Below are positions 2,230-51,068 of a DNA stretch of 64,000 nt, piece after piece. The notes under the pieces are model-generated. The model saw nothing but the letters and a program-made list of their open reading frames with translations. It searched no databases and was not told the DNA's origin. The stretch is from positions 26,710-90,709 of the forward strand of contig JBBTCW010000006.1 of the NCBI GenBank assembly GCA_038043025.1, read 5' to 3'. The DNA comes from Pseudomonadota bacterium (lineage in GTDB: Bacteria > Pseudomonadota > Gammaproteobacteria > UBA12402). The first letter of the stretch is position 1, and the number at the start of each line of letters is the position of its first letter. A program made the translations under genes and the position numbers.

Positions 2230-2240
2230 TAAGGTGATGT

Positions 2241-10935: not shown

Positions 10936-11059
10936 GATTATTCAGATTATTGTAGCGATTGATATTGCTAATACAAGAAAAATATAGGGCGTTAAGGAGG
11001 GTAAGGGCCGCATTTGTTCATATTTTGAACACGTTATTATTAGTTGTTGCAAATGCTTT

Positions 11060-12190
11060 ATGGTAATATACATCCTCAAATCGGTTGCCATTGCTGGTAG
11101 CGGAGATGGGTCGATTAATATTCTTGTGAGGTTGTTTGTGTACGATGTAGAATGGAAAAAACTTTTAGTTAATCCAGATTGTACATTAGAAAACGCCATT
11201 CGCGTGATTAATCAGGGTGCTTTGGGCACCGTGTTTGTTGTCGATCATGATTTAAAATTATTGGGTGTAGTGACGGATGGCGATGTGCGTCGTGGTTTAT
11301 TGCGACATGTTACGCTGGATCAGCCTGTTTTTTCCGTGATGAATGATCAGCCGAGGATGGCCATGCGCAATATAGATGTTGCCGAATTGATTACCATGAT
11401 GGAAGAACAGTCGATACGTTGTGTGCCGATTGTGGATGAAAATCAATGCATGATTGACGTAGAAATTTCACCGTATTTGCGTCGCGAGGCTAAAAATACG
11501 AATTGGGTGTTTTTAATGGCCGGTGGTTTTGGCACGCGATTAAAGCCATTAACCGACGATTGCCCGAAGCCATTATTGAAAATTGGCGGGCGTCCCGTTT
11601 TAGAAAATATTATTCAACAGTTTAAATTGAATGGGTTTCAGAAATTTTTTATGTCCGTTCATTATAAATTGAATATGGTGAAAAGTTATTTTGGTACGGG
11701 GGAACAGTTTGGCGTTGATATTAAATATCTTGAGGAAGAGGAGCCGTTGGGGACGGGTGGATCATTGGGCTTGTTACCCGAAATATCCCAGCCTTTAATC
11801 GTGATGAATGCCGATGTGTTAACGAAGGTGAATTTTCGTCAATTATTACAGTTTCATCTGGATTCAAAAGCTGCAGTGACGATGTGTGTGCGTGAATATG
11901 GTATGCAGGTGCCTTATGGTACCGTTCAGATCGATGGGCATGTTGTCACAGAAATTATTGAAAAACCCTCGTATCAATTTTTTATTAATGCGGGTATTTA
12001 TGTGTTATCGCCGGATGTCGTTAATGGGATTCAGGGAAAAAATAATTTTGATATGCCAACATTATTTAATCGGTTGATTCAAGAAGGCAAGACCGTAGTG
12101 ACCTTTCCCATACATGAATATTGGTTGGATATGGGCAAGATGGAAGATTTTAAACGTGCGCAAATAGATATTTCACCCTTTGTATCATGA
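11060..12190 (+). CDS. CBS-domain-containing sugar-phosphate nucleotidyltransferase (PtmE-like)
   Basis: N-terminal CBS-pair-like region, then an NTP-transferase domain (MAGGFGTRLKPLT, GxGxRL). This architecture is known from legionaminic acid pathways. Exact start uncertain. Confidence 0.6.
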   Translation: MVIYILKSVAIAGSGDGSINILVRLFVYDVEWKKLLVNPDCTLENAIRVINQGALGTVFVVDHDLKLLGVVTDGDVRRGLLRHVTLDQPVFSVMNDQPRMAMRNIDVAELITMMEEQSIRCVPIVDENQCMIDVEISPYLRREAKNTNWVFLMAGGFGTRLKPLTDDCPKPLLKIGGRPVLENIIQQFKLNGFQKFFMSVHYKLNMVKSYFGTGEQFGVDIKYLEEEEPLGTGGSLGLLPEISQPLIVMNADVLTKVNFRQLLQFHLDSKAAVTMCVREYGMQVPYGTVQIDGHVVTEIIEKPSYQFFINAGIYVLSPDVVNGIQGKNNFDMPTLFNRLIQEGKTVVTFPIHEYWLDMGKMEDFKRAQIDISPFVS

Positions 12191-13197
12191 TAGAAACCAT
12201 ACACAAACCCGTCATATTAGTTGTCGGTCTGGGCAGTATCGGCAAGCGGCATGTGAAAAATCTTCGTGCACTTTTTCCTGATGCGTATATGGTTGTGTGT
12301 CGACATGCGCCGACGGAGCATGATCAAGATTTTGTGACGCAATATATTGATAAAGTTGTGTATGATCTGAATGAAGCGATTGCGTTAAAACCGATGGCAG
12401 CTATTTTGTGCAATCCGGCGGTTTATCATGTTTCGATTGCACTGCAATTGGCAAAAAATGACATTCATCTGTTTATTGAAAAGCCGTTGTCGAATACGTT
12501 AACAGATGTGGAAGCTCTCATTACTCTATGTCGTCAGAAAAAATTAGTGTTCATGGTGGGTTATAATCTTCGCTTTTCAAAGACATTAGATCGCGCGAGG
12601 GAACTCATAAAGCGCGGAGCAATCGGTGATATCCTGTCTGCGCAGGTCAATACAGGGCAATATTTACCGGATTGGAGGCCGGGTGCTGATTATCGAAAAA
12701 CCGTGTCAGCGCAACAGAAAATGGGCGGCGGTGTTTTGTTAGAACTCAGTCATGAGTTAGATTATATGTGTTGGTTATTGGGCAAGCCTGTCGAGGTTTT
12801 TGCGCGATTGACCTCGAGTGGTTCATTGGAGATTGATGTAGAAGATAATGCGGATGTCTTTTTAACGTTTCAAAAGAATTTAATGGTGAGTATTCATCTT
12901 GATATGTTACAGCGTACCGCTTGTCGCCAGTGTAAGGTTGTGGGTGCGTTGGGTACAATAATTTGGGATGGTGTTGAAGATAAACTCATTGTTCAGTCTG
13001 AAAAACAAGAATTTTCGCAGAGTTTTTGCGGGGCAGAGGATAAAAATGAAATGTATAAACGAGAAATAAAACATTTTTTTGATTCTATTCGTAAAGGATC
13101 TCCTGCTATGGTTACAGGGGTTGATGCGTTGGAGAGTTTAAAGATTGTGTTGGCTGCAAGAAAATCAAATCAAACACGAGAAATTGTGCCATTATGA
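12187..13197 (+). CDS. Gfo/Idh/MocA-family NAD(P)-dependent oxidoreductase
   Basis: ILVVGLGSIGKRH Rossmann N-terminus; EKPL motif. Confidence 0.6.
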   Translation: MIETIHKPVILVVGLGSIGKRHVKNLRALFPDAYMVVCRHAPTEHDQDFVTQYIDKVVYDLNEAIALKPMAAILCNPAVYHVSIALQLAKNDIHLFIEKPLSNTLTDVEALITLCRQKKLVFMVGYNLRFSKTLDRARELIKRGAIGDILSAQVNTGQYLPDWRPGADYRKTVSAQQKMGGGVLLELSHELDYMCWLLGKPVEVFARLTSSGSLEIDVEDNADVFLTFQKNLMVSIHLDMLQRTACRQCKVVGALGTIIWDGVEDKLIVQSEKQEFSQSFCGAEDKNEMYKREIKHFFDSIRKGSPAMVTGVDALESLKIVLAARKSNQTREIVPL

Positions 13198-14710: not shown

Positions 14711-15898
14711 ATGTTTAATAAAGTTATTTTTTTGGTGTATTCCTATCATCACTCAATCGAGCATGAGCGCTTTGGTGTTTATGAGTTTGAAAAAAATAAT
14801 TTTTCAGTAGAGATTTGGATTTTGGCAAAAATTTTTTTGCCCGATAGGGAAACAAAATATTTATATGAAGAAAATGCCAATACTCAGAATATTAAAGTTT
14901 TTCATAACAAGGCTGAGTACAAAAATGCAATGAGATATTTGGATAAAAAGACTATCGTCATCAGTTATATTCCCTATGCGATCTCTTGTTATTTTATTTA
15001 TAGAGCCTTAACCAAATACCGCGTTACCTACATGTTGAACTCATGTTGTCATGTGCCTTCGTCAGAGGGGAGCCGACAGGTTTATGATAGTTGGTGGCAT
15101 TTTATATCTGCTAAGCTACAAGGTAAATTTTTTTTACGTTGCATGGAATGGGTGTTTCGTAAAATGCCAGGATATTTAATTGGAATTCGGCCGGCCAATG
15201 CCGCCTTGTTGGGAGGAATAAAAACATGGGGTGTGCATCGACCCGTCGGTCATCGCACGTTGCGATGGTATTTGCATGAAGATGATTATGAACGATTTTT
15301 AAAAGAAAATAAAACGCCATGCCAAGTAGATGAATCACTGTGTGTTTTTTTAGATTCGTATATTCCCTATCATCCGGATATGTCGTTTATGGGAGCGAGC
15401 GGGTCTATTGATCCCCAAAAATATTATCGTAAATTATGCTGTTTTTTCGATTATTTAGAACAAACTTATCATTATCATGTGGTCATTGCAGCGCATCCGC
15501 GCTCCAGATATCATGAGCATCCTGATTGTTTTGGTGGACGGGAAGTCATAAAAGGAAAAACAGTTTCATTGGTGAGAGCAAGCGGATTAGTCTTGGGTGA
15601 TGCAAGTGCATCAACAAGTTTTGCTGTCCTTTATAAAAAACCCATTATTTTTTTAATGATGGACATGTTAAAGCCCCACAAAATATATGAAAATTCTAAA
15701 AAATTTGCGGTCGCATTAGGCACGGAAATATTAAACTTGGATAATGATTTTAGTCATTTTGATTTAACGTCGAAGCTGCACATTAATCGAAATGCCTATA
15801 AAAATTATTTGGAAAATTATATTAAGGTTTCGGGTTCACCGGATACTTTATTTTGGGAATCTGTGCTAGACAAGCTCCATGCAGGCGCTTTGGGTTAG
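14711..15898 (+). CDS. Hypothetical protein, possible GT-B-fold glycosyl/nonulosonate transferase
   Basis: 395-aa ORF directly after the CMP-NulO module. C-terminal region (HVVIAAHPRS...LGDASASTSFAVLYKKPIIF) looks like a GT-B nucleotide-binding domain. No firm family call. Confidence 0.3.
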   Translation: MFNKVIFLVYSYHHSIEHERFGVYEFEKNNFSVEIWILAKIFLPDRETKYLYEENANTQNIKVFHNKAEYKNAMRYLDKKTIVISYIPYAISCYFIYRALTKYRVTYMLNSCCHVPSSEGSRQVYDSWWHFISAKLQGKFFLRCMEWVFRKMPGYLIGIRPANAALLGGIKTWGVHRPVGHRTLRWYLHEDDYERFLKENKTPCQVDESLCVFLDSYIPYHPDMSFMGASGSIDPQKYYRKLCCFFDYLEQTYHYHVVIAAHPRSRYHEHPDCFGGREVIKGKTVSLVRASGLVLGDASASTSFAVLYKKPIIFLMMDMLKPHKIYENSKKFAVALGTEILNLDNDFSHFDLTSKLHINRNAYKNYLENYIKVSGSPDTLFWESVLDKLHAGALG

Positions 15899-15919
15899 CG
15901 ACTATAATTATTTGGATGA

Positions 15920-16663
15920 CTATAGATCTGATATTTTCCACACGCCAATTTTTTTATCGGGACGAGAACAATATTTTGGGTCGATATCTTCATTAATATA
16001 TTGTAGCGGCGGGGGAAAACAAAAAGGGGGCTGTAAAAAATTTATCGTATGATGTGATCCAGTAATAATGTCGGTATTTTTTTTTAATTGACTAAACGTA
16101 GATGTGGCGAGATAGGTAGAGCCGCTTTTTTTAATATTGGCCAGACTTTTATAAATATCTTGAAATGAGAAGTGAATAAAAATATCTCGGCAAAAAATTA
16201 AATCGACTTTAGGAAGATTATCAGACAAAATATCGATAACTTGAAATTGTCTTTTTGTGTTTTCATATAACTTTTTATTGGTTTCTATTAATTCTTCTAC
16301 GATATCTGCTCCGATGTAATGATCCAAATTTAAAGGCATCTCATTCATCCAGAGAAAATCACCGCAGGGGATATCCAGCATAGTTTTTATGTTTAATTTT
16401 TTTAGCAATAAGAGCAATTCTGATCGCAGTGTTTTTGTTCTGTTGATGGTTGAGCTGGCGCCCGATATCGATTCACTATCCCCCCATCTATTTTTTTTAT
16501 AATAGGTAGTAAAAATTTGTTTAACGGAGTGATTTTTTAGGGTTGTTTTTAGCTGACGCTCATGCGATAGCTCTGTATAAAAATGTTTGGGGTGCCGCAC
16601 GGTATATAAAAAATGATAGAGCAGAGGAAGTCGATATTTTAGAAATAATCCTGCTTTGCTCAT
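15920..16663 (-). CDS. Class I SAM-dependent methyltransferase
   Basis: MLDIPCGDFLWMNE motif I. Start placed at MSKAGLF. The longer ORF to 16816 runs into a GC-rich palindromic intergenic element and gives an artefactual Arg/Pro-rich extension. Confidence 0.55.
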   Translation of the reverse strand: MSKAGLFLKYRLPLLYHFLYTVRHPKHFYTELSHERQLKTTLKNHSVKQIFTTYYKKNRWGDSESISGASSTINRTKTLRSELLLLLKKLNIKTMLDIPCGDFLWMNEMPLNLDHYIGADIVEELIETNKKLYENTKRQFQVIDILSDNLPKVDLIFCRDIFIHFSFQDIYKSLANIKKSGSTYLATSTFSQLKKNTDIITGSHHTINFLQPPFCFPPPLQYINEDIDPKYCSRPDKKIGVWKISDL

Positions 16664-16709
16664 TATTAAAAATCTCTCAATCAATGGGGTTAGTAAAATG
16701 TGAATATTT

Positions 16710-16880
16710 CCCCGCGGCTTGCCGCGAGGGACATTGCGCCTGGGGATTCTCAAGGGGAGCGGGCGTTCGCTCCCCTTGAGTCGCCGTCCGCGCGGGTTTC
16801 CCGCGCAGGCGATCAATAAAAGAAATAAAAATACCCCGTCCGCTTGCGGCGGGGATTTTTATTAAAAATTTCCGCCGCAA
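16710..16880. repeat. GC-rich cluster of 4 hairpin-forming palindromes
   Basis: Visible inverted repeats: CGCGGcttgCCGCG; a perfect 13-bp stem CTCAAGGGGAGCG-6 nt-CGCTCCCCTTGAG (16749-16780); CCGCGCGGGtttCCCGCGCaGG (16788-16809); CCCCGTCCGCttgCGGCGGGG followed by ATTTTTA (16834-16861). Sits in an AT-rich divergent intergenic region. Confidence 0.6.
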
Positions 16881-17132
16881 ATTGCTTCACATTATATGCT
16901 GTTATTGGTTGCGCAAAAAGAAGTTTTTTGGAAAAGATGGTTAGGGATGCTTTGGTTATCGAGTCGGGCAAATTTTGCCCATTCGCTGATTTTCAAAAAA
17001 TATTGATATTGAAGGCGAAAACCATTTATTTCATCCTGGTTATCATGGATTTTTGTTGGAATCAGTTTATAATTTGGCGATATTTTAAAGAAGATTGATA
17101 AATGTTGGCAGAAATATCGAGGCAGTTTTTTT

Positions 17133-18476
17133 ATGATATCCCCTATCATGCATAAAAAAAAACGTCTGCTCTATTATACGGGTCATTGTGAAATTGTGGG
17201 TGGCGATGTTAAATATCTATTTGAGTTATTGCAACATCTGGATAGCCATCAATTTGATATCACGATTTATGCGGATAAAAACAAAGAGTTTTCCAGAAAA
17301 ATTGCCATTGACTTTCCTGAGTTTGTGTCACAAGTGAAATACTTAGAGACAGCGCCAACATTGTTTCATCAGAACTTTTTGGAGCGCTATTATATTTATT
17401 TATCTCAAAAACAAAATAGTTTTTTGTTTAAAGTGCTTAATTGGAAGGTAAAAGGAAAAAGTTTGTTCCAAGCCGTCAATTTTTTATATACGTGTGCTTC
17501 TTTTAAATATTTAAGAGATCACGTTAGAAACTTTTTTGTGTTTTATCAACTTTTTTCAAACAAATGTAAAGACGTTGATATTGTTCATTTTAATAATGGA
17601 GGCTATCCGGGTAAGCTGGCGGGAGGGATGGCTATTGTTGTGGCACATTTTTTCGGCATTAAAAAGATCATCATGACCGTGCATAATGAACCGGTTGAAC
17701 GTCGATGGTATAGGGTTTCTGATTTTCTGTTGGATTATGGTGTTGCAAAATATTGTGATGATCTGTTAGTGCCTTCTGCTATTATTAAACAACAGTTGAT
17801 TGATTTGCGTGGGTTGCCATCGGATAAAATTCATGTCATTCAGTGTGGATTAAAAGATGAACCATTATATTCCGATCAAATGATTTATTTAAAGCGTCAG
17901 GCGCTGGGATTGATCCCAGAGCATTTGGTGCTGCTTATCGCGGGCAATTATGAAGATCCTCGAAAAGGTCATCATCTACTCTTATTGGCCTTAGCTGAAA
18001 ATATTACAAACTTTCCTACTTTAAAATTATTGATCGTTGGGGATGGATCTTTACAAAGAAAACAGGTATTGGATGATTTAGTTGATCGTTTGGGATTGGA
18101 TGATTATGTGGAGTTTTTGGGTTATCGCACGGATATGCATGCATTAAATTCGATTGCAGATGTCGTTGTCGTGCCGTCTATACAAGGGGAGGCAACACCC
18201 TATACAATCAAAGAAGCCGCGCGAGCGGGACGCCCCGTGATTACCTCAACGGCGGGCGGATGCGCGGAAGCTGTCGAACATAATGTATCCGGCTTGCTTG
18301 TGCCAGCGGGCGATATGAAAGCATTGTCGAGAGCATTAACTGTTTTATTGAAAGATGCGCGTTTGCGAAAAAAAATGGGCGAGCAGGCGAAATCATTATT
18401 TTTAGAGCGTTTTTTATTGCAAGATCGAGTAGAAGATGTTATTCAGTTGTACGCTGAACAAGTGGATGATACATGA
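17133..18476 (+). CDS. Glycosyltransferase family 4 (GT-B, group 1)
   Basis: C-terminal EX7E-type region PSIQGEATPYTIKEAARAGRPVITSTAGGCAEAVEHNVSGLLV. Confidence 0.7.
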   Translation: MISPIMHKKKRLLYYTGHCEIVGGDVKYLFELLQHLDSHQFDITIYADKNKEFSRKIAIDFPEFVSQVKYLETAPTLFHQNFLERYYIYLSQKQNSFLFKVLNWKVKGKSLFQAVNFLYTCASFKYLRDHVRNFFVFYQLFSNKCKDVDIVHFNNGGYPGKLAGGMAIVVAHFFGIKKIIMTVHNEPVERRWYRVSDFLLDYGVAKYCDDLLVPSAIIKQQLIDLRGLPSDKIHVIQCGLKDEPLYSDQMIYLKRQALGLIPEHLVLLIAGNYEDPRKGHHLLLLALAENITNFPTLKLLIVGDGSLQRKQVLDDLVDRLGLDDYVEFLGYRTDMHALNSIADVVVVPSIQGEATPYTIKEAARAGRPVITSTAGGCAEAVEHNVSGLLVPAGDMKALSRALTVLLKDARLRKKMGEQAKSLFLERFLLQDRVEDVIQLYAEQVDDT

Positions 18477-18503
18477 ATTATGTGAAAAAGGGGCTTGTTT
18501 TAT

Positions 18504-19601
18504 ATGTTTAATAATGTGTATAAAAATCGTCGCGTTTTTGTTACGGGTCACACCGGGTTTAAAGGGAGCTGGTTAACGCAGTGGTTGTTAAATTTAGGGG
18601 CGGATATAGCCGGTTATTCTGTCGATATTCCCTCGCAACCCTCTTTGTATGAATTACTTCATTTAAAGGAAAAAATACGACAAGATTATAGGGACGATAT
18701 TAGAGATATTGATCGATTATCCCAGGCGATGGCGGATTTTCAGCCGGAAATTGTTTTTCATTTGGCGGCACAGCCAATTGTGCGTACATCGTTGGCAGAA
18801 CCCAAGTTAACATTTGATGTTAATTTAGGGGGAACAGTTAATATATTAGATGCGATACGTCATATTGATTCTATTGTTGCTGCAGTATTTATTACCAGCG
18901 ATAAATGTTATGAAAATGTAGAATGGGAATATGGTTATCGTGAAACAGATGTGTTGGGAGGAAAAGATCCTTATAGTGCATCGAAGGCGTGTGCTGAAAT
19001 GGCCATTAGTGCTTATGAGCGTTCGTTCTATCAAGATTCAAATCAGGCGCTGGTGTCAGCGCGAGCGGGTAATGTTATTGGCGGAGGAGACTGGGCTAAA
19101 GATCGCATTGTGCCTGATTGCATGCGTGCGTGGGCCAAAGGAGAAACTGTCGAAGTGCGACGACCTACAGCCATTCGACCTTGGCAACATGTGCTAGATC
19201 CATTGGGCGGCTATTTGGATTTGGGTGCGCGGTTGTATGCAAAAGATAAAGATGTGATTGGCGAGGCGTTTAATTTTGGTCCGTTGTCAGAAACGTATTT
19301 AACGGTAGGCGAGTTAGTGAAAAGGTTGAGTAACGTTTGGGGCGAGTCTGCGCATTCAAAATTGTTTAATTGCGAAATGCAAAGTCGTGAGGCAGGTTTA
19401 TTGAAACTATGCTGTGATAAGGCGTTGGCGCGACTTAATTGGTCCGCCACCTTAAGTTTTTCTGAAGCGATCATGTTTACGGGAGAGTGGTATCGTGATT
19501 ATTATCGGTCTTCTAAAGAAAGCATGGTAGACATGACTAATGCTCAAATTGAAAAATATGTACATTTAGCAAAAGAGCGAGGTCGATTTTGGGCGCAATA
19601 G
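18504..19601 (+). CDS. rfbG: CDP-glucose 4,6-dehydratase
   Basis: N-terminus MFNNVYKNRRVFVTGHTGFKGSWLTQWL is diagnostic of CDP-glucose 4,6-dehydratases. YSASK YxxxK present. Start at the second ATG of the ORF. Confidence 0.8.
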   Translation: MFNNVYKNRRVFVTGHTGFKGSWLTQWLLNLGADIAGYSVDIPSQPSLYELLHLKEKIRQDYRDDIRDIDRLSQAMADFQPEIVFHLAAQPIVRTSLAEPKLTFDVNLGGTVNILDAIRHIDSIVAAVFITSDKCYENVEWEYGYRETDVLGGKDPYSASKACAEMAISAYERSFYQDSNQALVSARAGNVIGGGDWAKDRIVPDCMRAWAKGETVEVRRPTAIRPWQHVLDPLGGYLDLGARLYAKDKDVIGEAFNFGPLSETYLTVGELVKRLSNVWGESAHSKLFNCEMQSREAGLLKLCCDKALARLNWSATLSFSEAIMFTGEWYRDYYRSSKESMVDMTNAQIEKYVHLAKERGRFWAQ

Positions 19602-20059
19602 AAATAAATCAGCCCATGATCGATGGGGTCTATGTTACACCGCTTAAAAAATTTACGGATGAGCGGGGGATGGTGATGCATATATTGAGTGATATGCAAT
19701 TATCTACTGTTCGAGAAGTCTATGCATCGCTTATCAAAAGCACGGCGATCAAAGCCTGGAAGCGTCATCATAAGATGGTGCAACATTATGCCGTTCCGAT
19801 TGGTAAAATTAAATTAGTATTATTTGACAATCGTCTGAATTCTTCTACCCATAATAGGGTTCAGGAAATAGTGACAGGCATTGATTATTATGGTCTCATT
19901 CAAATTCCGCCCATGGTTTGGTATGGTTTTGAAAGTTTATCAGATGGAGATTCGTTGATTGTTAATGGCGCTTCTTTGCCACATGACCCAAATGAGGTTG
20001 ATTGCTTAGATAAAAATACTCGGGAAATTCCGTATGTATGGGGTGATAATTTAAATTGA
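19589..20059 (+). CDS. RmlC-like cupin NDP-sugar epimerase/isomerase (dTDP-4-dehydrorhamnose 3,5-epimerase family, short form)
   Basis: YVTPLKKFTDERGMVMHIL resembles the RmlC/FdtA cupin family. 156 aa, overlaps the rfbG stop. Confidence 0.5.
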   Translation: MGAIEINQPMIDGVYVTPLKKFTDERGMVMHILSDMQLSTVREVYASLIKSTAIKAWKRHHKMVQHYAVPIGKIKLVLFDNRLNSSTHNRVQEIVTGIDYYGLIQIPPMVWYGFESLSDGDSLIVNGASLPHDPNEVDCLDKNTREIPYVWGDNLN

Positions 20060-20084
20060 GAAATCTCCGCCGCTTGCGGCCGAG
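20051..20084. repeat. 34-bp dispersed hairpin repeat, copy 1 (TTAAATTGAGAAATCTCCGCCGCTTGCGGCCGAG)
   Basis: Near-identical copy at 50987-51020. Contains the imperfect hairpin CTCCGCCGC-ttg-CGGCcGAG. Begins at the stop codon of the upstream gene. Confidence 0.6.
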
Positions 20085-20195
20085 TTGTTGAAAAAATATA
20101 TCCAAGACCTAAGCTCGTAAATTTTACCGCTTTAAAATCGTGGGTTCCCGCTAGATGCTTGTCGGTGTTAATGGTTATTTGAGGGAGGGGAGTAA

Positions 20196-21884
20196 ATGAA
20201 GAACTGGTTACCTACGTTCCAGATGAACACTCGTAAGGGCGTGTTATTGCCGGTTTTTTATCTGTTTTTGGCGACATTGATATTTCATGGATTGACGCTG
20301 TTCAATAATGGAATTTTTTCGGATGGTTGGATAGGCTATATAATATTTATTGAGCATAATTTTGTTTGGATGAAAGCGGTTGACTCTGCAATGGGATTGC
20401 CCATTGACTATTATATTGATTGGGTTTCAATGTTGTTAGGATATGGGTTCATTATTAATTTGACTGGGTTTTTATCTGTTTTTATCGCTTCTTTATGTGT
20501 TTATTTGTCTTTGAGATTATTCAAGTCAATATCGTCTTCAATTGCCTTATTGGCTGCTTACGTTGTTATTATTTACCCGGGGGCGCTAACGACATTTTTT
20601 GGAGATGTGAATAATAATCATGTTTGTTATATATTGTTTTTTGTGGCGAGCTATTTTGGGCTTAAAAGTCAATCCATTGGTCAGTATAATATTTTTTCTA
20701 TCGCGCTGAGAGTTGGCAGCCTGTTGCTTTTTTTTATTAGTTTTTTCTTAAAATCTTTGCTTTGTTATTATGCTGTTTTTTTTGCGGCGCTGTATTGCTT
20801 GTCAATTCGAGATCAAAAAATCTTGTCGTTTAGAGCAAATATGAAATTTTTACTGCGAACATTAGATTTCTTTATTCTGCCGTTTTTGTTTTTTGTAATA
20901 GTGAGCGTTTTTTTTCCGGCTCATGGTGTTTATGCGGGGTATAATACGATTGCGTTTCCGGGATATTTTCTTTTTATTTATTGGCATTTACACTCGTTTT
21001 TTAATATTATTTTCTTTTCATGGGTTGTTGATTGTCTGTATGTGTTGTTTTTAATAGCGGGCGTTGTATGGGTGCTGCTTAAGCAAATACCCGTTTCGGT
21101 AATAATGAATTTAATGAAAAGACCATTAACCGATAAATGGTTTTTTCCCTACGGCGTGCTTTTGATTGTTGGTTTTGTGGCGTTGTGGATGGCCGTATTT
21201 CCCTATATTATGGTGCATATCGTGGTTGATAGTACGCGGGCAATAGGGACGTCCCATTATTCACTTTTGGTGCCCAGCGCAATGGCGATATTATTTGCAG
21301 GTATTTGGGGGTTGTGGTTTCAAAATAGTGATGGGCGGATTACTTCTGTTGGAAAAATTATATTTGTCGCATTGGCATTAGTATATGGCATTTTTTGGTA
21401 TCGAGGTTATTTACAATTGAGTGCTGAATCTGCCTTACAAAAAACCTTGATAAAACAATTTCAGAAGCATCCCGGCTGGGGAAATTATTCGATTTATTGG
21501 ATTCGGATATATTTTGACGGGGTACAACCCGTCTATAGCGGATATGAGTGGAGCGGTATCTTGAGTTATGTCTATGGCGGACATTCTCGATATGGTGAAT
21601 CATATAAATCGCGACAAACCTATAATTCAGTCTATTGGGACAAAACTTTTACGCCATTGGTTCGACAATTGTATAATATTGAAAAGTGGGATGAAAATGG
21701 CTGTCAAGCAACTATAAAAATTATTCCATTGAGCGAAGGTAAAAATCCCTATGTCATAGGAAGTTTATATTTATACTATAGGCTTTTAGATAAAAAACAA
21801 TTATCATCTTTTTTGGATCATTTGATGCAGGTAGAGGTTCGTCCCTATCAGTCTATAGAGGCAACACATTGTAAAAAAGTATAG
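20196..21884 (+). CDS. Polytopic integral membrane protein (candidate GT-C glycosyltransferase or O-antigen polymerase-like)
   Basis: 562 aa with many hydrophobic helices (FYLFLATLIFHGLTLF..., WVLLKQIPVSVIM...) and a hydrophilic C-terminal domain. No specific motif recognised. Confidence 0.4.
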   Translation: MKNWLPTFQMNTRKGVLLPVFYLFLATLIFHGLTLFNNGIFSDGWIGYIIFIEHNFVWMKAVDSAMGLPIDYYIDWVSMLLGYGFIINLTGFLSVFIASLCVYLSLRLFKSISSSIALLAAYVVIIYPGALTTFFGDVNNNHVCYILFFVASYFGLKSQSIGQYNIFSIALRVGSLLLFFISFFLKSLLCYYAVFFAALYCLSIRDQKILSFRANMKFLLRTLDFFILPFLFFVIVSVFFPAHGVYAGYNTIAFPGYFLFIYWHLHSFFNIIFFSWVVDCLYVLFLIAGVVWVLLKQIPVSVIMNLMKRPLTDKWFFPYGVLLIVGFVALWMAVFPYIMVHIVVDSTRAIGTSHYSLLVPSAMAILFAGIWGLWFQNSDGRITSVGKIIFVALALVYGIFWYRGYLQLSAESALQKTLIKQFQKHPGWGNYSIYWIRIYFDGVQPVYSGYEWSGILSYVYGGHSRYGESYKSRQTYNSVYWDKTFTPLVRQLYNIEKWDENGCQATIKIIPLSEGKNPYVIGSLYLYYRLLDKKQLSSFLDHLMQVEVRPYQSIEATHCKKV

Positions 21885-21909
21885 AGCCAGGTTATTTTGA
21901 GGTAGAATA

Positions 21910-23238
21910 ATGACTAAAGCAGATCAATTAAAACAAGAAATACTCGATAAAGTGGCGGAGTATTATCAGTATGCTTTTAATCAAGCGCCCAAGCAGAATC
22001 GCATCTCTTATGCGGGTCGTGTGTTTGATGAGCGGGAAATGTTGAATTTAGTGGACGCATCGCTAGAGTTTTGGTTGACGGAAGGGCGATACGCGCAAGC
22101 ATTTGAAAAGAAATTCTCTGGCTTTTTAAACGTTAAATATACCGCATTAGTTAATTCAGGTTCTTCGGCTAATTTGCTTGCCTTTGCAACGTTGACATCA
22201 CCTTTGTTAAAGGATCGACAAGTTTTACCAAAGGATGAAATCATTACGATTGCGGCTGGGTTTCCGACAACAGTGACCCCTATTATTCAATATGGCGCGA
22301 CACCTGTTTTTGTCGATGTTGTATTAGCCGATGGGACGTACAATGTTGATTGTGCGCAATTAGAACAGGCGTTGTCAAATAAAACTAAAGCAGTGATGTT
22401 GGCGCATACATTAGGGAATCCATTTGATTTATCAAAAGTATTGGGGTTTTGTCAGAAAAATAATCTATGGTTAATTGAAGATAATTGTGATGCGCTTGGC
22501 TCTAAATATAATGGAAAATATACAGGAACTTTTGGCGATATTGCTACTAGTAGTTTTTATCCGCCGCATCATATTACCATGGGCGAAGGCGGCGCGGTTT
22601 ATACGAATAATCCATTGCTAAATAAGATTATGCGTTCCATGCGTGATTGGGGGCGTGATTGCTATTGTCATTCAGGCAAAGATAATAGCTGTGGAAAGCG
22701 ATTTGGGCAGCAACATGGCGAGTTACCTTATGGGTATGATCATAAATACGTGTATTCACATTTTGGTTATAACCTCAAGGCGACTGATTTGCAGGCAGCG
22801 ATTGGTTGTGCGCAATTAGAAAAATTAGATGGCTTTATAAAACGGCGTCGAGAAAGTTGGCAATATTTGAGAGATGCGCTGTCGATGTTTGATAAATATT
22901 TTATTTTGCCTAATGCAACGCAGAAGAGTGAGCCAAGTTGGTTTGGTTTCTTGATGACGGTTAAAGAAAACGTCGGCTTTTCGCGCGCAGACATGGTGAC
23001 TCATTTAGAAGAACACAATATTCAAACGCGCATGTTGTTTGCAGGGAATTTAATTCGCCATCCTTGTTTTGATCAGCTGAGAGCAAAAGGAGTCGACTAT
23101 CGAGTGATCGGAAATTTAAAAAACACCGATGATATTATGAATAACACTTTCTGGATTGGCGTGTATCCGGGATTAGGTAAAGCGCAGCTGGATTATATGA
23201 TTCAAACGATTTCGCAATTTATCCAATCCATCCAATAG
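21910..23238 (+). CDS. rfbH: CDP-6-deoxy-D-xylo-4-hexulose-3-dehydrase (E1, DegT-fold PMP/[2Fe-2S] enzyme)
   Basis: 442-aa DegT-fold protein with a clustered cysteine motif WGRDCYCHSGKDNSCGKRFG, typical of the E1 iron-sulfur site. Size and N-terminus fit RfbH/DdhC. Confidence 0.7.
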   Translation: MTKADQLKQEILDKVAEYYQYAFNQAPKQNRISYAGRVFDEREMLNLVDASLEFWLTEGRYAQAFEKKFSGFLNVKYTALVNSGSSANLLAFATLTSPLLKDRQVLPKDEIITIAAGFPTTVTPIIQYGATPVFVDVVLADGTYNVDCAQLEQALSNKTKAVMLAHTLGNPFDLSKVLGFCQKNNLWLIEDNCDALGSKYNGKYTGTFGDIATSSFYPPHHITMGEGGAVYTNNPLLNKIMRSMRDWGRDCYCHSGKDNSCGKRFGQQHGELPYGYDHKYVYSHFGYNLKATDLQAAIGCAQLEKLDGFIKRRRESWQYLRDALSMFDKYFILPNATQKSEPSWFGFLMTVKENVGFSRADMVTHLEEHNIQTRMLFAGNLIRHPCFDQLRAKGVDYRVIGNLKNTDDIMNNTFWIGVYPGLGKAQLDYMIQTISQFIQSIQ

Positions 23239-24731
23239 GTCATTTTTGTTTTGCGCTGTTTATTTTCAAGTACTTTTTTATCTTGATAAAAGCTATCATC
23301 AGTATAATGCGTAGTAGATATTTCTTCGAAGATGGCGCCGTTGTTGGATTTAAAGTTATGATCTACGCCACGCTCAACGGTGACCATTTCGCCCGTGCTA
23401 ACTTCTTTGCTCGCGCCATCCAGCTCGACCGCCATATCGCCATAAAGCAGATGAAATGTTTCTTCTTTCTTTTTATGATGATGTACCGGGTGTTTTTGTC
23501 CGGGTAATAAAATAATTAATTTTTTACAGTATTCTCGGTTAATACAATTGATAATGGCGGCGCCATATTCTTCATAGCGATCAATGCCGTAATGGTGCGA
23601 GAGCTCAAGCTCCAGTTGGTTGGGCAAGGCTATTTTGCTGGCCGCCAATATTTTTGTAATTTTTTTGATGATGTTTACAACGGTTGTTCGTGAGTTTTTA
23701 ATAATGAGATCATTGTAAGTGATGGCGGTTTTTTCTGTTACATCATTTTGTAGCGTGTAATCAGTGTATTTTGAAAACTCATTAGAAACAAGTTGCGCGT
23801 CGATATTGGGTATGGCATAAAAGATATTATCGGTTGTTAATTTATCACCTTTTTTTAAGTTGGATTTTGCAAAAACCCCGCGCTTTAAACCGCGTAAATC
23901 ATTGCCTTCTTTTTCCGAGATGGCTCGCCGTTTGTGAGTGACGCCGCATATGTCATAAGTTTCTTTTGCTGCTTGTAGCCATTGCTCGATTTGTTCAGGG
24001 GTTGAAGAATAAGCGTTTAATTCGTAGCGATCTGTGGCTAAACCGACATGGCGTTCAAAAAGTCCAGCGCCTTTTGCAATGGCGATTTTAATGGGGTCGA
24101 AATTATTGGGTGCTTCATGGGTCGAAAAACCAATGGAAATTTTTGAATAACGGTTTCTGAAAAAATCAATTTGGTTGAGCTCTAAATCTTGATTGGGTGT
24201 TGGATAAGCGCCAATGCAATGCATGAGCGCAAATTCTTTTTTTCGATGTTCAAAGAATGAGACAACTTTGTCAATATCTTCAAGTGAGGCGCCGGCGGTT
24301 GATGCAATAATAGGTTTGCTGGTTTGCGCAATTTTTTCTAATAAGGGCCAGTCGGTAAAAGAGCAACTGGCGATTTTAATGATGTCAAAGTCATGTGCTT
24401 CAATTAAGTCCACAGAGTTCTCATCAAACGGCGTGCAAATGGCGGTAAATCCATTATTAACGATTTCATCTTTGAGCGATTTTAAGTCATCGCGGTCTAA
24501 ACGTGTTTCAGAAAATCGTTTAATATATTTAATATCTTGTCGATGTTTGTAGTCAGGATGAATGAAAGTATCGAGGTCGCGGTATTGTAGTTTAAAGCCA
24601 AATTTGAAGGGAAATTTATGTTTAATTTTTCCCAGTTGTTGAATAATGGCTTTTCCATGCGCAACATCACCCATATGGTTGTTGGCCATTTCGAAGATAA
24701 AGAGTTGGTGAAAAATATCTGACGATGACAT
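23202..24731 (-). CDS. NeuB-family PEP-condensing synthase fused to SAF and C-terminal cupin domains
   Basis: N-terminus IFEMANNHMGDVAHGKAIIQQL (NeuB-type); SAF-like FAKSNLKKGDKLTTDNIFYAIP; C-terminus HPVHHHKKKEETFHLLYGDMAVELDG (cupin). 3' end convergently overlaps rfbH by 37 nt. Confidence 0.55.
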   Translation of the reverse strand: MSSSDIFHQLFIFEMANNHMGDVAHGKAIIQQLGKIKHKFPFKFGFKLQYRDLDTFIHPDYKHRQDIKYIKRFSETRLDRDDLKSLKDEIVNNGFTAICTPFDENSVDLIEAHDFDIIKIASCSFTDWPLLEKIAQTSKPIIASTAGASLEDIDKVVSFFEHRKKEFALMHCIGAYPTPNQDLELNQIDFFRNRYSKISIGFSTHEAPNNFDPIKIAIAKGAGLFERHVGLATDRYELNAYSSTPEQIEQWLQAAKETYDICGVTHKRRAISEKEGNDLRGLKRGVFAKSNLKKGDKLTTDNIFYAIPNIDAQLVSNEFSKYTDYTLQNDVTEKTAITYNDLIIKNSRTTVVNIIKKITKILAASKIALPNQLELELSHHYGIDRYEEYGAAIINCINREYCKKLIILLPGQKHPVHHHKKKEETFHLLYGDMAVELDGASKEVSTGEMVTVERGVDHNFKSNNGAIFEEISTTHYTDDSFYQDKKVLENKQRKTKMTYWMDWINCEIV

Positions 24732-24910
24732 ATGAAAGATCTCTTCTGTAGTCGTATTAAAAGAGCCATTTTATATTCTTCCATCAAATAGTCAATTAAG
24801 GAGCGGTTCTGTTCGTTATTCAATTTTGTTTTTTTGTGATTGATATTTAGAACATTGTCTTGACAATGGCGCTATTTTTTTGTCCAATTTTATCTTTCTA
24901 AGGGTTTTTT

Positions 24911-26047
24911 ATGGCGATTACAGAATGCAGGGTTTGTGGTTATGGTTTTTTTGATGAGCCATTGCTGCAATATGCTAATATGCCAAAATCTGCTCAATTT
25001 TTACCCGTTGCGGCTTCTTTGAAAAATGATGAGGGTGTCGATCTAAATGTCTATCAATGCGCAGCTTGTGGTTTAGTGCAGTTGAATAGTCATCCAGTGC
25101 ATTATTACAGGGATGTCATACGTGCAGCCGCCTTTTCAGAGGAAATGAGAAAATTTCGATTGGATCAATTCGCTGGGTTTATCAAGCAGCACAATCTTGT
25201 TCAAAAAAAAGTCATCGAGATTGGGTGTGGGCGAGGGGAGTATTTATCACTTATTCGTGATTGTCATGTGGATGCTTATGGAATAGAAAATTCTGCAGCG
25301 TCAGTGGCATATTGCATTAAACATAAACTTAATGTTTTTCAAGACTTTATTGAGAGCAATGAACAGAAGGTTGCGCATGCTCCATTTGATGCGTTTTTGA
25401 TGTTAAGTTTTTTAGAACATCTGCCTCAGCCCAATGCGATACTTCAAGGAATATGCCGAAATTTGGCTGATGATGCCGTCGGGATTGTGGAAGTGCCAAA
25501 TTTTGATATGATTATTAAAAAGAAGCTTTTTTCTGAATTTATCAGTGATCACCTGTTTTATTTTACGCGAGATACGTTAATTGCGATCCTACAGTTAAAT
25601 GGATTTGACGTATTGGAATGTAAAAATGTGTGGTATGATTACATCCTTTCCGCAGTTGTCAAAAAACGAACACGTATGAGTTTGTCAGTGTTTTATAAAT
25701 CGCAAGAACAGTTGCAACAACGGGTTAGTGATTATCTGGATGGCTTTGGCGATCAAAAGGTAGCCATCTGGGGGGCGGGGCATCAGGCATTAGCGATGAT
25801 GTCTTTGATGCGCTTAGAAGATAGAATCAAATATGTGGTTGATTCTGCGCCGTTTAAGCAGGGCAAATATACCCCTGCCACGCATATCCCTATTGTGTCG
25901 CCTGAAATGTTGAATGTCGATCCTGTTGATGCGGTGATTGTAATGGCAGCCAGTTATTCAAATGAAGTTGTGCAAACATTGCGAAAAAATTTCAATAAAA
26001 ACTTAAATGTTGTTGTGTTAAAAGAGCATGATTTAGTAACAGCGTGA
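24911..26047 (+). CDS. NDP-hexose C-methyltransferase (TylC3-like; Zn-ribbon + SAM MTase + C-methyltransferase C-terminal domain)
   Basis: N-terminal Cys pairs CRVCG...CAACGLVQL typical of the TylC3 family zinc-binding domain. SAM motif VIEIGCGRGEY. C-terminal Rossmann-like IWGAGHQALAMMS. Confidence 0.65.
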   Translation: MAITECRVCGYGFFDEPLLQYANMPKSAQFLPVAASLKNDEGVDLNVYQCAACGLVQLNSHPVHYYRDVIRAAAFSEEMRKFRLDQFAGFIKQHNLVQKKVIEIGCGRGEYLSLIRDCHVDAYGIENSAASVAYCIKHKLNVFQDFIESNEQKVAHAPFDAFLMLSFLEHLPQPNAILQGICRNLADDAVGIVEVPNFDMIIKKKLFSEFISDHLFYFTRDTLIAILQLNGFDVLECKNVWYDYILSAVVKKRTRMSLSVFYKSQEQLQQRVSDYLDGFGDQKVAIWGAGHQALAMMSLMRLEDRIKYVVDSAPFKQGKYTPATHIPIVSPEMLNVDPVDAVIVMAASYSNEVVQTLRKNFNKNLNVVVLKEHDLVTA

Positions 26048-26103
26048 GATTTTTTAAAGAGAGAAATTTTCATTGCGTGTGGTTGAGTTGTTGAAAAATT
26101 AAT

Positions 26104-27216
26104 GTGAGGCATAAAGTGTTAGATCAAAATTTACGTCAGAGTGAAATAGAAAAGCGTAATCAATTACAACATAACAAGCCGCGTGTTTATGAGAAAATTA
26201 CACGGTTTAAAGATAAAGTTGAACGAGGAGAAAGTATTGCTATTATTCAATTTCAATATAATTATCAATGCAATTTTCGTTGTGAGCATTGTTCAATAAA
26301 AGGGTTTCAAGGCAAACAGGACAAGAGAAAATTTACGATAGAAGATGTAAAAAAGCTTTCATATGAGGCGGATGAAATGGGTTTGGCGCATTTGGTGATT
26401 ACGGGGGGGGAGCCGTTAATTTTTAAAGATTATGATGCATTGATAGCGGCTATTGATCCCAGCAAATTTTATATTAGTTCTGATACAAATGGTTGGTTTT
26501 TAGATGCTGAAAGAGCGCGTCATCTTAAAGAGATTGGCGTGGATAAAATTCAATTGAGTCTTGATAGCCTTGATGCGGATTCTCACGATGCGTTTAGAGG
26601 AGCGCCCGGATCACATGCGCGCGCGTTACGTGCGATTGATGCAGCGCAGAATGCTGGCTTAAATATTATTGTACAAACGGTTGTCACAAAGACCCGATTG
26701 CATACGGATGAATTTATTCGTTTTTTAGAGTTTTTAAATGCTAAAAATGTTGGCGTATTTGTGACTTATGCCAAACCTGTAGGCGCGTGGGAAGGGCATT
26801 TTGAAGAATTGGTTGATCTTGATGACATGGCTTATATGCGAGAGCTCGAGAAAAAACATAATGTATTTACGCATTTAACGCCGTCTTATGGATTGGATTT
26901 AGGTTGCTTAGCAGTTAAGCGAATGATTTCTGTTACACAATACGGTGATGTTTTGCCTTGCCCATATATTCATACATCGATAGGGAACGTATTTCAAGAG
27001 TCATTACAAAAGATTATTAATCGAGGGTTAAGTATTAAATATTTTGGCGAATATGTGGAGACTTGTTTGATCGCAGAAGATAGAAAATTTATCCATGATT
27101 ATGTGGTGAAAAAAATATATGGCAAGCCATTACCTGTTCCATATGATGAGGTGTTTGATGCGGAGAGCGATTATATAAAAGATAAGGTTGATGCGGCTTG
27201 GGTAGAGGTAGAGTAG
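26104..27216 (+). CDS. Radical SAM protein with SPASM/twitch-like C-terminal domain
   Basis: CNFRCEHC (CX3CX2C) and GGEPL motifs. C-terminal GDVLPCPY is SPASM-like. Apparent GTG start. Confidence 0.65.
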   Translation: MRHKVLDQNLRQSEIEKRNQLQHNKPRVYEKITRFKDKVERGESIAIIQFQYNYQCNFRCEHCSIKGFQGKQDKRKFTIEDVKKLSYEADEMGLAHLVITGGEPLIFKDYDALIAAIDPSKFYISSDTNGWFLDAERARHLKEIGVDKIQLSLDSLDADSHDAFRGAPGSHARALRAIDAAQNAGLNIIVQTVVTKTRLHTDEFIRFLEFLNAKNVGVFVTYAKPVGAWEGHFEELVDLDDMAYMRELEKKHNVFTHLTPSYGLDLGCLAVKRMISVTQYGDVLPCPYIHTSIGNVFQESLQKIINRGLSIKYFGEYVETCLIAEDRKFIHDYVVKKIYGKPLPVPYDEVFDAESDYIKDKVDAAWVEVE

Positions 27217-28286
27217 TGGAAAATTTAATAACGGTCATCGTTCCTGTTTATAATGCAGAGCAATATTTGCATCAGTGTTTGAGCAGCGTTGTGTGCCAGA
27301 CTTATCGCAATATAGAAGTGGTGCTGGTGGATGATGGATCCACCGATGGTGGCAGCAAAATATACAATGAATATGCGCTTGATGATAATCGAATTAAGAT
27401 AATTCGTACAGAAAATAATGGCCCCGCATCGGCCAGGAATCGGGCAATAAAAATTGCGCGTGGTGAATTTTTGTTTTTTCTTGATGCAGATGATTTTCTT
27501 GAACGAGATTCGCTAGCTGTATTGATTGAGTGGCATAAAGAAACGGGCGCTGATGTGATTATTGGTGGGTTCAATAAAATCAGAAATGACCATAGTGTTG
27601 TGCCTCAGAATATTTATTTAGATAAACAATTATTAGATTTATCGAGTGTTGCGCGGTATGCGATGCAATATTTGGAGAGACCTAATCGATTTTTGCTATT
27701 TGCCTATTCTTGGGGGAGGTTGTTTAAGACATCTATTGTGGAAGATAATAACATATTGTTTGATGCCGCGTTGCATACGTTTGAAGATGTAAAATTTAAT
27801 TTCGCATATTTACAATATGCAAAGAAAGTTTTTTATTCGGATAAGATTGTTTATAACCACTTAGCCCATGATAATTACGCATCGGCCACCATGGCAGTGT
27901 GCGATAATCCAAAAAAATTATTGGGATACCAACAGGCATTGAACGGCATAGAAGATTTCTTGAAAAGTCAGGGCGTTAATGAGGGCGTTAGAAAACAAAA
28001 AATGGGGCATGCATATATTTATTTAACTATTATTCAGTTAGTCCGTCTATGCGGGCAAATTACGACGCATAACCGGGGAAATATTTTTTTGCTGGTCAAG
28101 CAAGTGATTAATGATCCGCTGCTTCAGGTATATTTGCCCTGTTATTCTCCGTCTGGAAAAGATAGTCGAGTGCTTCCTGCATTAATGAAGTTAAAATTGA
28201 CATCGGCAATTATATGGCTTTGCCAATATAAGGCACAGAAAAGATATCAGAAAGCGGGTGTTGTTGGTACATGTGAGCGAAGGTAA
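27198..28286 (+). CDS. Glycosyltransferase family 2
   Basis: VIVPVYNAEQYL...VVLVDDGSTDG and LDADD (DXD) motifs. Confidence 0.7.
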   Translation: MGRGRVVENLITVIVPVYNAEQYLHQCLSSVVCQTYRNIEVVLVDDGSTDGGSKIYNEYALDDNRIKIIRTENNGPASARNRAIKIARGEFLFFLDADDFLERDSLAVLIEWHKETGADVIIGGFNKIRNDHSVVPQNIYLDKQLLDLSSVARYAMQYLERPNRFLLFAYSWGRLFKTSIVEDNNILFDAALHTFEDVKFNFAYLQYAKKVFYSDKIVYNHLAHDNYASATMAVCDNPKKLLGYQQALNGIEDFLKSQGVNEGVRKQKMGHAYIYLTIIQLVRLCGQITTHNRGNIFLLVKQVINDPLLQVYLPCYSPSGKDSRVLPALMKLKLTSAIIWLCQYKAQKRYQKAGVVGTCERR

Positions 28287-28290
28287 GTCG

Positions 28291-29496: not shown

Positions 29497-29514
29497 GATA
29501 GAGGGTTATATAAA

Positions 29515-31227: not shown

Positions 31228-31269
31228 AAAGTAATTTAGTTTTTAAAAATTTATAATTAGGAGGGAATC

Positions 31270-39878: not shown

Positions 39879-39932
39879 CGATGATAGGTTTTTATGGCAT
39901 AGTGGAAACCTTTGAAAAATAGTCATCATTTT

Positions 39933-40049
39933 ATGTTCAATGGCATCTATCAAAATCGTCGCGTGTTGATTACGGGGCATACTGGCTTTAAAGGTAGTTG
40001 GCTCGCGCAATGGTTATTGGATTTAGGCGCTGAATGGGATAAATCATGA
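39933..40049 (+). pseudogene. Remnant of a second CDP-glucose 4,6-dehydratase gene (38-codon N-terminal fragment, then stop)
   Basis: Translates as MFNGIYQNRRVLITGHTGFKGSWLAQWLLDLGAEWDKS*, closely paralleling the N-terminus of the intact rfbG at 18504 (MFNNVYKNRRVFVTGHTGFKGSWLTQWLLNLGAD). Ends at the start of the next GT2 gene. Confidence 0.7.
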
Positions 40050-49452: not shown

Positions 49453-49531
49453 GCGAAAGTCGCTATTAATTGCCTGATTAAAGGTGGCTTTGCCTGGTGA
49501 ATTATCCCAAATAGATAGAGGCAGAAAGATA

Positions 49532-50950: not shown

Positions 50951-50986
50951 TTGCGCCACATTTACGACACAATTGCGCCATTGTAT

Positions 50987-51020
50987 TTAAATTGAGAAAT
51001 CTCCGCTGCTTGCGGCGGAG
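50987..51020. repeat. 34-bp dispersed hairpin repeat, copy 2 (TTAAATTGAGAAATCTCCGCTGCTTGCGGCGGAG)
   Basis: 32 of 34 positions match the copy at 20051-20084. Preceded by three copies of AATTGCGCCA (50938-50980). Confidence 0.6.
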
Positions 51021-51068
51021 TCAAGGGCGATGGGGAATCAATTAAGGAAACAAAATATTGAGATCATT

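Follow-up and report, generated by a model that had tools for sequence, protein, structure and literature searches.

The window, by which we mean the whole 64,000-nt stretch of DNA analysed here, contains a long co-directional sugar-biosynthesis operon. Nearly all of its long ORFs lie on the + strand, every 2-kb bin from position 1 to 64000 has a positive GC skew (0.10–0.29), and the G+C content is ~39%. A window scan with the 34-nt consensus TTAAATTGAGAAATCTCCGCYGCTTGCGGCSGAG yields two exact matches, at 20051–20084 and 50987–51020, both on the + strand. The two copies agree at 32 of 34 positions, as the original prediction had stated, with 0 expected by chance (100 shuffles), and the stretch common to both is really 37 nt long (20049–20085 and 50985–51021). 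Their 21-nt leader is perfectly conserved, which could reflect either a recent origin or constraint. The features of the window that belong to this repeat are the following.

16693..16863, + strand: full-length A-type element, a covariance-model match of 188 bits with the consensus structure
16694–16710, + strand: leader of the full-length element
16710–16730, + strand: hairpin H1 of the full-length element
16749–16780, + strand: hairpin H2 of the full-length element
16781–16812, + strand: hairpin H3 of the full-length element
16813–16833, + strand: A-rich linker TCAATAAAAGAAATAAAAATA of the full-length element
16834–16863, + strand: hairpin H4 and U-tract of the full-length element, terminator-like
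20049..20095, + strand: copy 1, a putative 'solo hairpin' derivative with leader ATTTAAATTGAGAAATC, a chimeric stem-loop and the 3' tail GTTGTTGAAAAA
20065–20072 / 20077–20084, + strand: stem of copy 1, with the loop CTTG and a C68 x C81 mismatch
26048..26098, + strand: copy 3, a putative decayed solo-hairpin relic with leader and tail recognisable and the stem unpaired
50985..51053, + strand: copy 2, a putative internally deleted derivative with leader, H1, linker 1 GTCAAGGGCGATGGGGAATC and linker 2 AATTAAGGAAACAA
51001–51008 / 51013–51020, + strand: H1 stem of copy 2, with one G·U pair

Copy 1 overlaps the final three codons of a 156-aa ORF (19589–20059) and provides its TGA stop at 20057–20059, while copy 2 begins ~35 nt past the stop of the ORF at 49484–50950 and ~50 nt ahead of wecB (start ~51069). 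The original prediction had placed both immediately 3' of a gene end. The hairpin proposed for each copy is present (20065–20084 and 51001–51020), with a stem of 8 bp rather than about 9 bp and a CTTG loop. The stem is interrupted by one C·C mismatch in copy 1 and includes one G·U pair in copy 2. In RNA folding, suggested at the outset as a check, copy 1 shows no advantage over its shuffles (z = −0.8), and copy 2 only a slight one (z = −1.2; about −17 kcal/mol in context).

A third copy, mentioned in the original prediction no more than was the continuation of copy 2 to 51053, was detected by the repeat finder at 26048–26101, with 74% identity to copy 1 (20045–20098) over 54 nt. Its tail includes an exact GAGTTGTTGAAAAA at 26085–26098 (0.05 expected by chance), and its stem no longer pairs, leaving no stable fold (z = +0.8). 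Copy 3 has a C-methyltransferase ORF on one side (ending at 26047) and a radical-SAM ORF on the other (starting at 26104). Besides a C-methyltransferase and a SPASM radical-SAM enzyme, the genes at 24911–32820 include three more radical-SAM enzymes, two of them B12-binding, which points to a glycan with heavy C-methylation or some other modification.

The ORF that copy 2 directly follows (49484–50950) encodes Schlafen AlbA_2 and HATPase_c_4 domains amid the sugar-biosynthetic co-directional array; this pair of domains is met more typically in defence or regulatory genes. Immediately before copy 2 lie three exact copies of AATTGCGCCA within 43 nt (50938, 50949 and 50971; window 50938–50980). 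The first of them extends over the last bases of the Schlafen/AlbA_2 ORF, the window has no exact copy besides these three, and the one-mismatch count is at chance level. Elsewhere in the window, 105 nt at 18500–18604 and 39929–40033 are 75% identical; they belong to two NAD-dependent sugar dehydratase/epimerase genes, which are paralogues, and are unrelated to the repeat.

A similar core had been reported at 16841, and it is real: positions 16840–16852 belong to the terminal hairpin, H4, of the full element at 16693–16863. This element sits between a divergent methyltransferase gene (15920–16663, − strand) and a glycosyltransferase gene (17133–18476, + strand), and the minus-strand ORF is a real methyltransferase. 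Its parts follow each other in the order leader, H1, linker, H2, H3, linker, H4 and tail. We recovered 15 full copies of 157–175 nt at different loci, one in the window, one in apaH of the same genome and 13 in close relatives, and their comparison shows that the 34-mer is the 5' module of this four-hairpin element, made up of its AT-rich leader and hairpin H1.

The relationship comes out most directly in a scan of genome contigs (one genome per species) with the 20-mer GAGAAATCTCCGCNGCTTGC from the 34-mer. Only one of its seven matches is real (L004, Gammaproteobacteria bacterium RIFCSPHIGHO2_02_FULL_42_13), and the other six are chance matches in high-GC genomes. In L004/L021 three more hairpins, which match window positions 16740–16863, continue directly from the 34-mer; past the 34-mer of L004 come GTCAAGGGCGATGGGGAATC, two hairpins, a linker rich in A and, as the last part, a hairpin resembling a terminator. 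The flanks of the L004 copy have no homology to the window. We withdrew an interpretation of this difference as different contexts across genomes, as the two are different loci in closely related genomes.

In a second scan, a 24-mer of the A-rich linker (3' module) was matched at 12 loci among JGI metagenome contigs, and one assembly, Ga0155284, in which the L004 locus is also present, has seven different contigs with a full copy. The copies represent three types, A, B and C, which vary in leader, H1 and first linker, and which have in common H2 and H3, TCAATAAAAGAAATAAAAATA as linker, and an H4 that runs into ATTTTTATT. In all ten A-, B- and C-type copies the stretch from the linker AAUAAAAGAAAUAAAAAUA through the terminator hairpin to the U-tail is invariant. 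By this classification the 34-mer is a C-type 5' module and the full copy of the window is A-type. A covariance model built from ten copies, and used to find further ones, revealed a fourth type, D, with the 3' end AATCAATTAAGGAAACAATC, H4 (TCGGCCGCTTGCGGCCGA) and GTTGTTGAA, without the A-rich linker and without the U-tract. Some subfamilies end in the A-rich linker and terminator-like H4 and are intergenic; the D type and a C/D hybrid found in the window's species have a stop-free 3' end and lie in frame within genes. The H1 and H4 modules form near-identical direct repeats at the ends of the element (22/24 identical in the apaH copy). The ends score 14–20 as direct repeats compared to 8–13 as inverted repeats, and they resemble each other only because both are palindromic hairpins.

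Four hairpins are predicted by RNAalifold. In the alignment of the 15 copies, which is fitted to the covariance model and therefore biased towards the structure, 99.1% of cells pair and 12 of 45 pairs are changed on both sides; the margin is large nonetheless, as 0 of 500 shuffles reached these values and sliding the partners by 1–3 columns left at most 1 both-sides pair. The compensatory changes show that the four predicted hairpins have been kept.

Further searches added no members to the family. A viral contig scan gave one match (L030), by chance, and plasmid blastn with the full element gave none. Rfam produced no hits for the whole window at gathering thresholds, and only sub-threshold chance hits for 16500–17100 at E up to 10. 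Literature searches for the element family or the Rifle MAG found no description of either.

Over 21,329 compared bases the window matches a Hainich groundwater contig (L009) at 100% identity. A 1.76-Mb long-read contig also carries the locus, as does MAG GCA_964359675.1. All available strains, compared at the copies for presence or absence and for the module boundaries or recombination points that the original prediction thought the repeat could mark, are 99.7–100% identical across this region. The same 1.76-Mb contig and the same MAG encode, ~470 kb from the window, an ApaH with an insert. This copy, which has a C-type 5' end and a D-type 3' end (AAAATTGAGAAATCTCCGCCGCTTGCGGCGGAGTCAAGG...AATCTCGGCCGCTTGCGGCCGAGTTGTTGA), bears out the expectation of a dispersed hairpin repeat that recurs in the genome. 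In the ~110 kb of the source genome seen there are 2 full copies and 5 fragments, and one additional copy is deduced from protein P0038. Three short-read contigs (L013, L014 and L016) break off within copies, which is what repeats are expected to cause. The Rho proteins of the window's genome and the Rifle MAG are nearly identical, which makes the two genomes close relatives, and the nearest family-named match is a Coxiellaceae MAG (84%). The source genome also encodes many ankyrin-repeat proteins, a U-box protein, AbiEii and DotU/IcmF (L033, L035); the ankyrin, U-box and DotU/IcmF genes together with the Coxiellaceae-like Rho hint at a host-associated lifestyle.

The copy in apaH is one of several that are translated as parts of proteins. 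Three D-type copies of the Rifle-type genome are located in the long ORFs dnaE, mutY and waaA. The DnaE insert occupies residues 577–631, between the polymerase and finger domains and in sense orientation; the MutY insert occupies residues 152–206, between the HhH-GPD and NUDIX domains and in antisense orientation; and in WaaA the copy is at the C-terminus. The in-frame copies use three different reading frames and both orientations, and each of them differs from its sister copies where those have a stop in the frame used. A six-frame translated query retrieved 12 protein clusters with element peptides, with internal inserts in MutY, ApaH, DapF and an unnamed 478-aa protein and N-terminal fusions in a nuoB-like protein and Fmt, the Fmt fusion being probably a miscalled start. 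The corresponding A-type query added Rpe, with an insert near the C-terminus, and one further copy on the source contig. When ApaH is aligned to structure 2dfj, residues 1–209 and 267–313 match chain residues 1–213 and 221–265, so that an insert of ~50 residues is explained by the element. In view of these copies the family can no longer be described as solely extragenic, the term used in the original prediction.

Two of the retrieved proteins (P0006 and P0009) have about ten extra residues (PALSVSKGRR) in the H1-region peptide, FKLRNLRRL-PALSVSKGRR-SQ(E/G)RWG, which points to a variant whose H1 hairpin is extended or nested. The six-frame query also retrieved an IS110-family transposase whose gene is interrupted by a D-type element (L038 781–947), which splits it between the DEDD and Transposase_20 domains (355–1469 and 2032–3183). 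A reverse-transcriptase (RVT_1) gene lies just downstream of the split gene. We considered IS110/IS1111 as the mobiliser of the element, or the element as its target, and rejected both, as the only case found is the reverse, with the element interrupting the IS110-family gene.

A comparison of orthologous loci provides one case of insertion polymorphism. At the orthologous nuoB-like gene, the flanks of the insertion site are 87% identical between the Rifle-type genome (L044) and the window's species (L035). The former has an in-frame 159-bp, 53-codon D-type copy after codon 9 whereas the latter is empty, and the proteins read MWQLTKNII[53 aa]KSKIQTE and MWQLIKNIIKSKIQTE, respectively. This single filled/empty site shows the family to be mobile. 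The junctions are compatible with 0 bp or a 2-bp AA duplication, and among the 15 copies there is no consistent flanking repeat of the kind expected from target-site duplication. No transposase or other mobilising enzyme was identified in the loci examined, nor was a related autonomous IS seen there that could supply one.

An IS4/Tn5-like IS is present in the same genome ~470 kb from the window (L033 11054–12607; transposase gene 11168–12559; ends TTTATACATAAGT...ACTTATGTATAAA), flanked by an A-type leader and H1 remnant (11054–11097) and a solo H4 terminator (12575–12607). This IS appears to have inserted into an element. The short-read contigs L031, L032 and L034 end at the same site.

The apaH element of the same species offers a key to the origin of copy 1. 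Positions 20053–20080 are an exact 28-nt match to its 5' end (leader and H1, L031 4042–4069), positions 20069–20091 are an exact 23-nt match to its 3' end (H4 and tail, L031 4179–4201), and the two matches overlap by 12 nt in GCCGCTTGCGGC. They show a hairpin of chimeric make, whose 5' arm comes from H1 and whose 3' arm and tail come from H4, and the C·C mismatch is there because the two arms have these different sources. Recombination between H1 and H4, or replication slippage, could have deleted the interior of an element and left one chimeric hairpin between its two termini, an origin from terminal direct repeats comparable to that of a solo LTR. We infer such a deletion for copy 1; a self-spreading 'small version' of the element would yield the same sequence equally.

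Copy 2 has a different composition. It runs on to 51053, with the exact 18-mer AATCAATTAAGGAAACAA at 51036–51053, as in D-type copies, and it scores 26 bits with the covariance model. It is without H2 and H3 and also without H4, and its two linkers meet at a common AATC. A deletion between two AATC repeats probably removed H2–H3, with H4 missing as well. Copy 3 has both termini as in copy 1 and a mutated stem, and is probably an older solo hairpin. We consider it highly probable that the two 34-mers of the window are broken-down leftovers of a non-coding, palindrome-rich and mobile four-hairpin element of the C/D type, of which the 34-mer is the 5' module, and that they are now near-neutral relics.

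An intrinsic terminator requires a G+C-rich hairpin directly followed by a U-tract. Neither copy 1 nor copy 2 has a U-tract past its stem (the tails are GUUGUUGAAAAA and UCAAGGGCG) and neither was flagged as a terminator, which leaves the terminator-type label they had been given unsupported; the only element-derived site flagged in a terminator scan of 15500–27000 is H4 of the full copy at 16834–16863, which alone has both parts of such a signal. Full terminator-bearing copies are located mostly between divergent genes, with the rest between convergent genes or, in antisense, between tandem ones; the long co-directional sugar-biosynthesis operon has only terminator-less remnants inside. Terminator-bearing forms are presumably absent from the operon because they would be polar, which would amount to selection against them. 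The window relics themselves are most likely near-neutral and transcribed as small stem-loops within the polycistronic mRNA, where they may play a modest role as mRNA hairpins.

One may ask instead whether the 34-mers are functional cis-acting hairpins kept by selection, as partial terminators, attenuators or REP-like exonuclease barriers that set the stability of mRNA segments. Both copies are on the coding strand with short spacers just after gene ends, and the G+C-rich 8-bp stem of copy 2 is clean, closed by a CUUG loop and of favourable energy in context. Domesticated REP, BOX and MITE hairpins are moreover described as affecting the expression of neighbouring genes (PMC10969869). The missing U-tracts and terminator flags speak against this explanation, and so do the mismatched stem of copy 1 and the weak z-scores of both copies, the complete loss of the stem in copy 3 at an equivalent position, and the occurrence of the same sequence within the apaH coding region. 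We regard it as unlikely. Two narrower proposals were considered. For the AT-rich leader as a −10 box or outward promoter, no −35/−10 pair was seen by eye at either end, and conservation begins abruptly at the leader. A JUMPstart/ops-like operon element, which the polysaccharide locus had suggested, was rejected: the GGCGG(A)G resemblance differs between the two copies and the sequence is also found inside apaH.

The original prediction also likened the repeat to a REP-type element. REP/BIME sequences of enterobacteria and pseudomonads are short G+C-rich imperfect palindromes in operon spacers, sometimes forming mosaics, and they can stabilise upstream mRNA; REPs have a conserved GTAG/GTGG tetranucleotide 5' of the stem, which is the RAYT cleavage motif. 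The 34-mers and the apaH copy resemble them as short (20–40 nt) imperfect palindromes repeated in a genome, and the 34-mers share with them a place in operon spacers. GTAG is found in only 1 of 15 copies, the location is not strictly extragenic (in-frame copies in apaH, dnaE, mutY, dapF, rpe and the nuoB-like gene), the short form derives from a longer element and not the reverse, and no RAYT is known for this family. A version of the idea in which the short hairpin is the unit, moved by RAYT or an IS200/IS605-like tyrosine transposase, and the long elements are BIME-like mosaics of such units, draws on the double use of one kind of unit (leader, G+C-rich stem, CTTG loop) in every element, as H1 and as H4, on hairpins of H1-like and H4-like type that stand alone elsewhere in the genome (L033 11054–11097 and 12575–12607), and on the REP-like small versions that Coxiella QMITE2 likewise has (PMC5896051). 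We find it very improbable, in view of the variable leaders (TTGAG, GTAAG, GTGAAG, GCGAAG) without a conserved GTAG or GTGG 5' of the stem and the lack of a RAYT gene in the ~110 kb of source genome seen. The only insertion polymorphism involves the whole 159-bp element, and copy 1 has both long-element termini with a mismatched chimeric stem, as deletion predicts and the copying of an intact unit does not.

Equally hard to sustain is the proposal that the full terminator-bearing elements are sRNA genes, with a variable 5' region and a scaffold of an (ARN)6 tract and terminator as in Hfq-binding RNAs, and that the 34-mers are their partial duplicates. The invariance of AAUAAAAGAAAUAAAAAUA, terminator hairpin and U-tail in the ten A-, B- and C-type copies, the structure conserved with covariation, and the origin of the Coxiella sRNA CbsR16 from QMITE2 (PMC5896051) are in its favour, set against the lack of a conserved promoter upstream of the abrupt start of conservation at the leader, the translation of sister copies within genes in three frames and both orientations, and the lack of an Rfam match. 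The 34-mers are also on the same strand as the genes and therefore cannot serve as antisense targets.

Viewed as a mobile four-hairpin element, the family has some of the features of a MITE: it is smaller than 500 bp, has no transposase gene, is found at many unrelated loci (15 copies) and shows insertion polymorphism (L044 vs L035). The closest parallels are the palindromic elements (RPEs) of Rickettsia and QMITE2 of Coxiella burnetii. RPEs are described as short (~150 bp) palindrome-rich repeats of several subfamilies, found between genes and also within the reading frames of unrelated housekeeping genes, where they are translated into additional peptide segments (PMC10969869, citing Ogata et al. 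2000). The element described here is likewise short and palindrome-rich, has subfamilies, and is both intergenic and in frame (apaH, dnaE, mutY, dapF, rpe, nuoB-like), and as a ~100–170-bp palindromic repeat that keeps the frame of unrelated housekeeping genes open it fits the RPE type. To our knowledge no transposase is known for RPEs, and the same is true here. The likeness is one of behaviour: the host is an uncultured gammaproteobacterium, whereas that of RPEs is an alphaproteobacterium, and sequence homology to the Rickettsia RPE families is for this reason unexpected. The present element differs, too, in its four discrete hairpins, its terminal direct-repeat hairpin modules and its distinct terminator-bearing intergenic subtype.

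QMITE2 of Coxiella burnetii is 150–190 bp long with a very stable predicted fold, and has few full-length and more truncated, REP-like copies; it overlaps the last bases of upstream genes and is linked to bidirectional terminators and inserted IS elements (PMC5896051). Solo hairpins, a copy that lies over the stop codon of a gene (copy 1) and a remnant with an IS4/Tn5-like IS in it (L033) are found here as well. However, QMITE2 has 7–11-bp direct repeats, 23–29-bp terminal inverted repeats and a GTAG REP that serves IS1111 as a target (PMC5896051, PMC10969869), and, compared by description, such direct repeats, long terminal inverted repeats and GTAG REP are not found in our element, whose relation to the IS110 family is, in the one case seen, the reverse, as it interrupts the transposase gene. 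The pneumococcal BOX/SPRITE elements have a modular build of hairpin boxes, with one subtype that ends in a Rho-independent terminator-like hairpin (PMC10969869). Modular hairpin boxes and a terminator-ending subtype also occur here, although sequences and hosts are unrelated. We know of no systematic in-frame insertion of BOX/SPRITE into essential genes.

These results lead us to two statements of different reach. For the window itself, the 34-mer needs no new biology, being selfish-repeat debris, and it should receive no regulatory or terminator annotation without RNA data. For the parent family, we see about even chances that it is an undescribed RPE-like family, active now or recently, in a Coxiellaceae-related groundwater lineage, with a stop-free 53-codon version in essential enzymes (DnaE, MutY, ApaH, DapF, Rpe) and an intergenic terminator-bearing version, and that it spreads in a hairpin-dependent manner without classical terminal inverted repeats or target duplications. 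On the practical side, the repeats break short-read assemblies of these genomes and lead gene callers to extend proteins falsely at the N-terminus, as with Fmt and the nuoB-like gene.

The best-known examples of palindromes inserted in frame into essential genes come from Rickettsia. The parent family would be a second, unrelated case, in an uncultured and probably host-associated gammaproteobacterium, and would allow the phenomenon to be studied independently. It raises the question of how proteins tolerate inserts of 53 residues, and the question of how such elements move, with precise boundaries and a 159-bp insert and with no obvious terminal inverted repeats or target duplications. If the RPE-like interpretation is true, the filled and empty versions of the nuoB-like site make the mechanism of spreading directly approachable.
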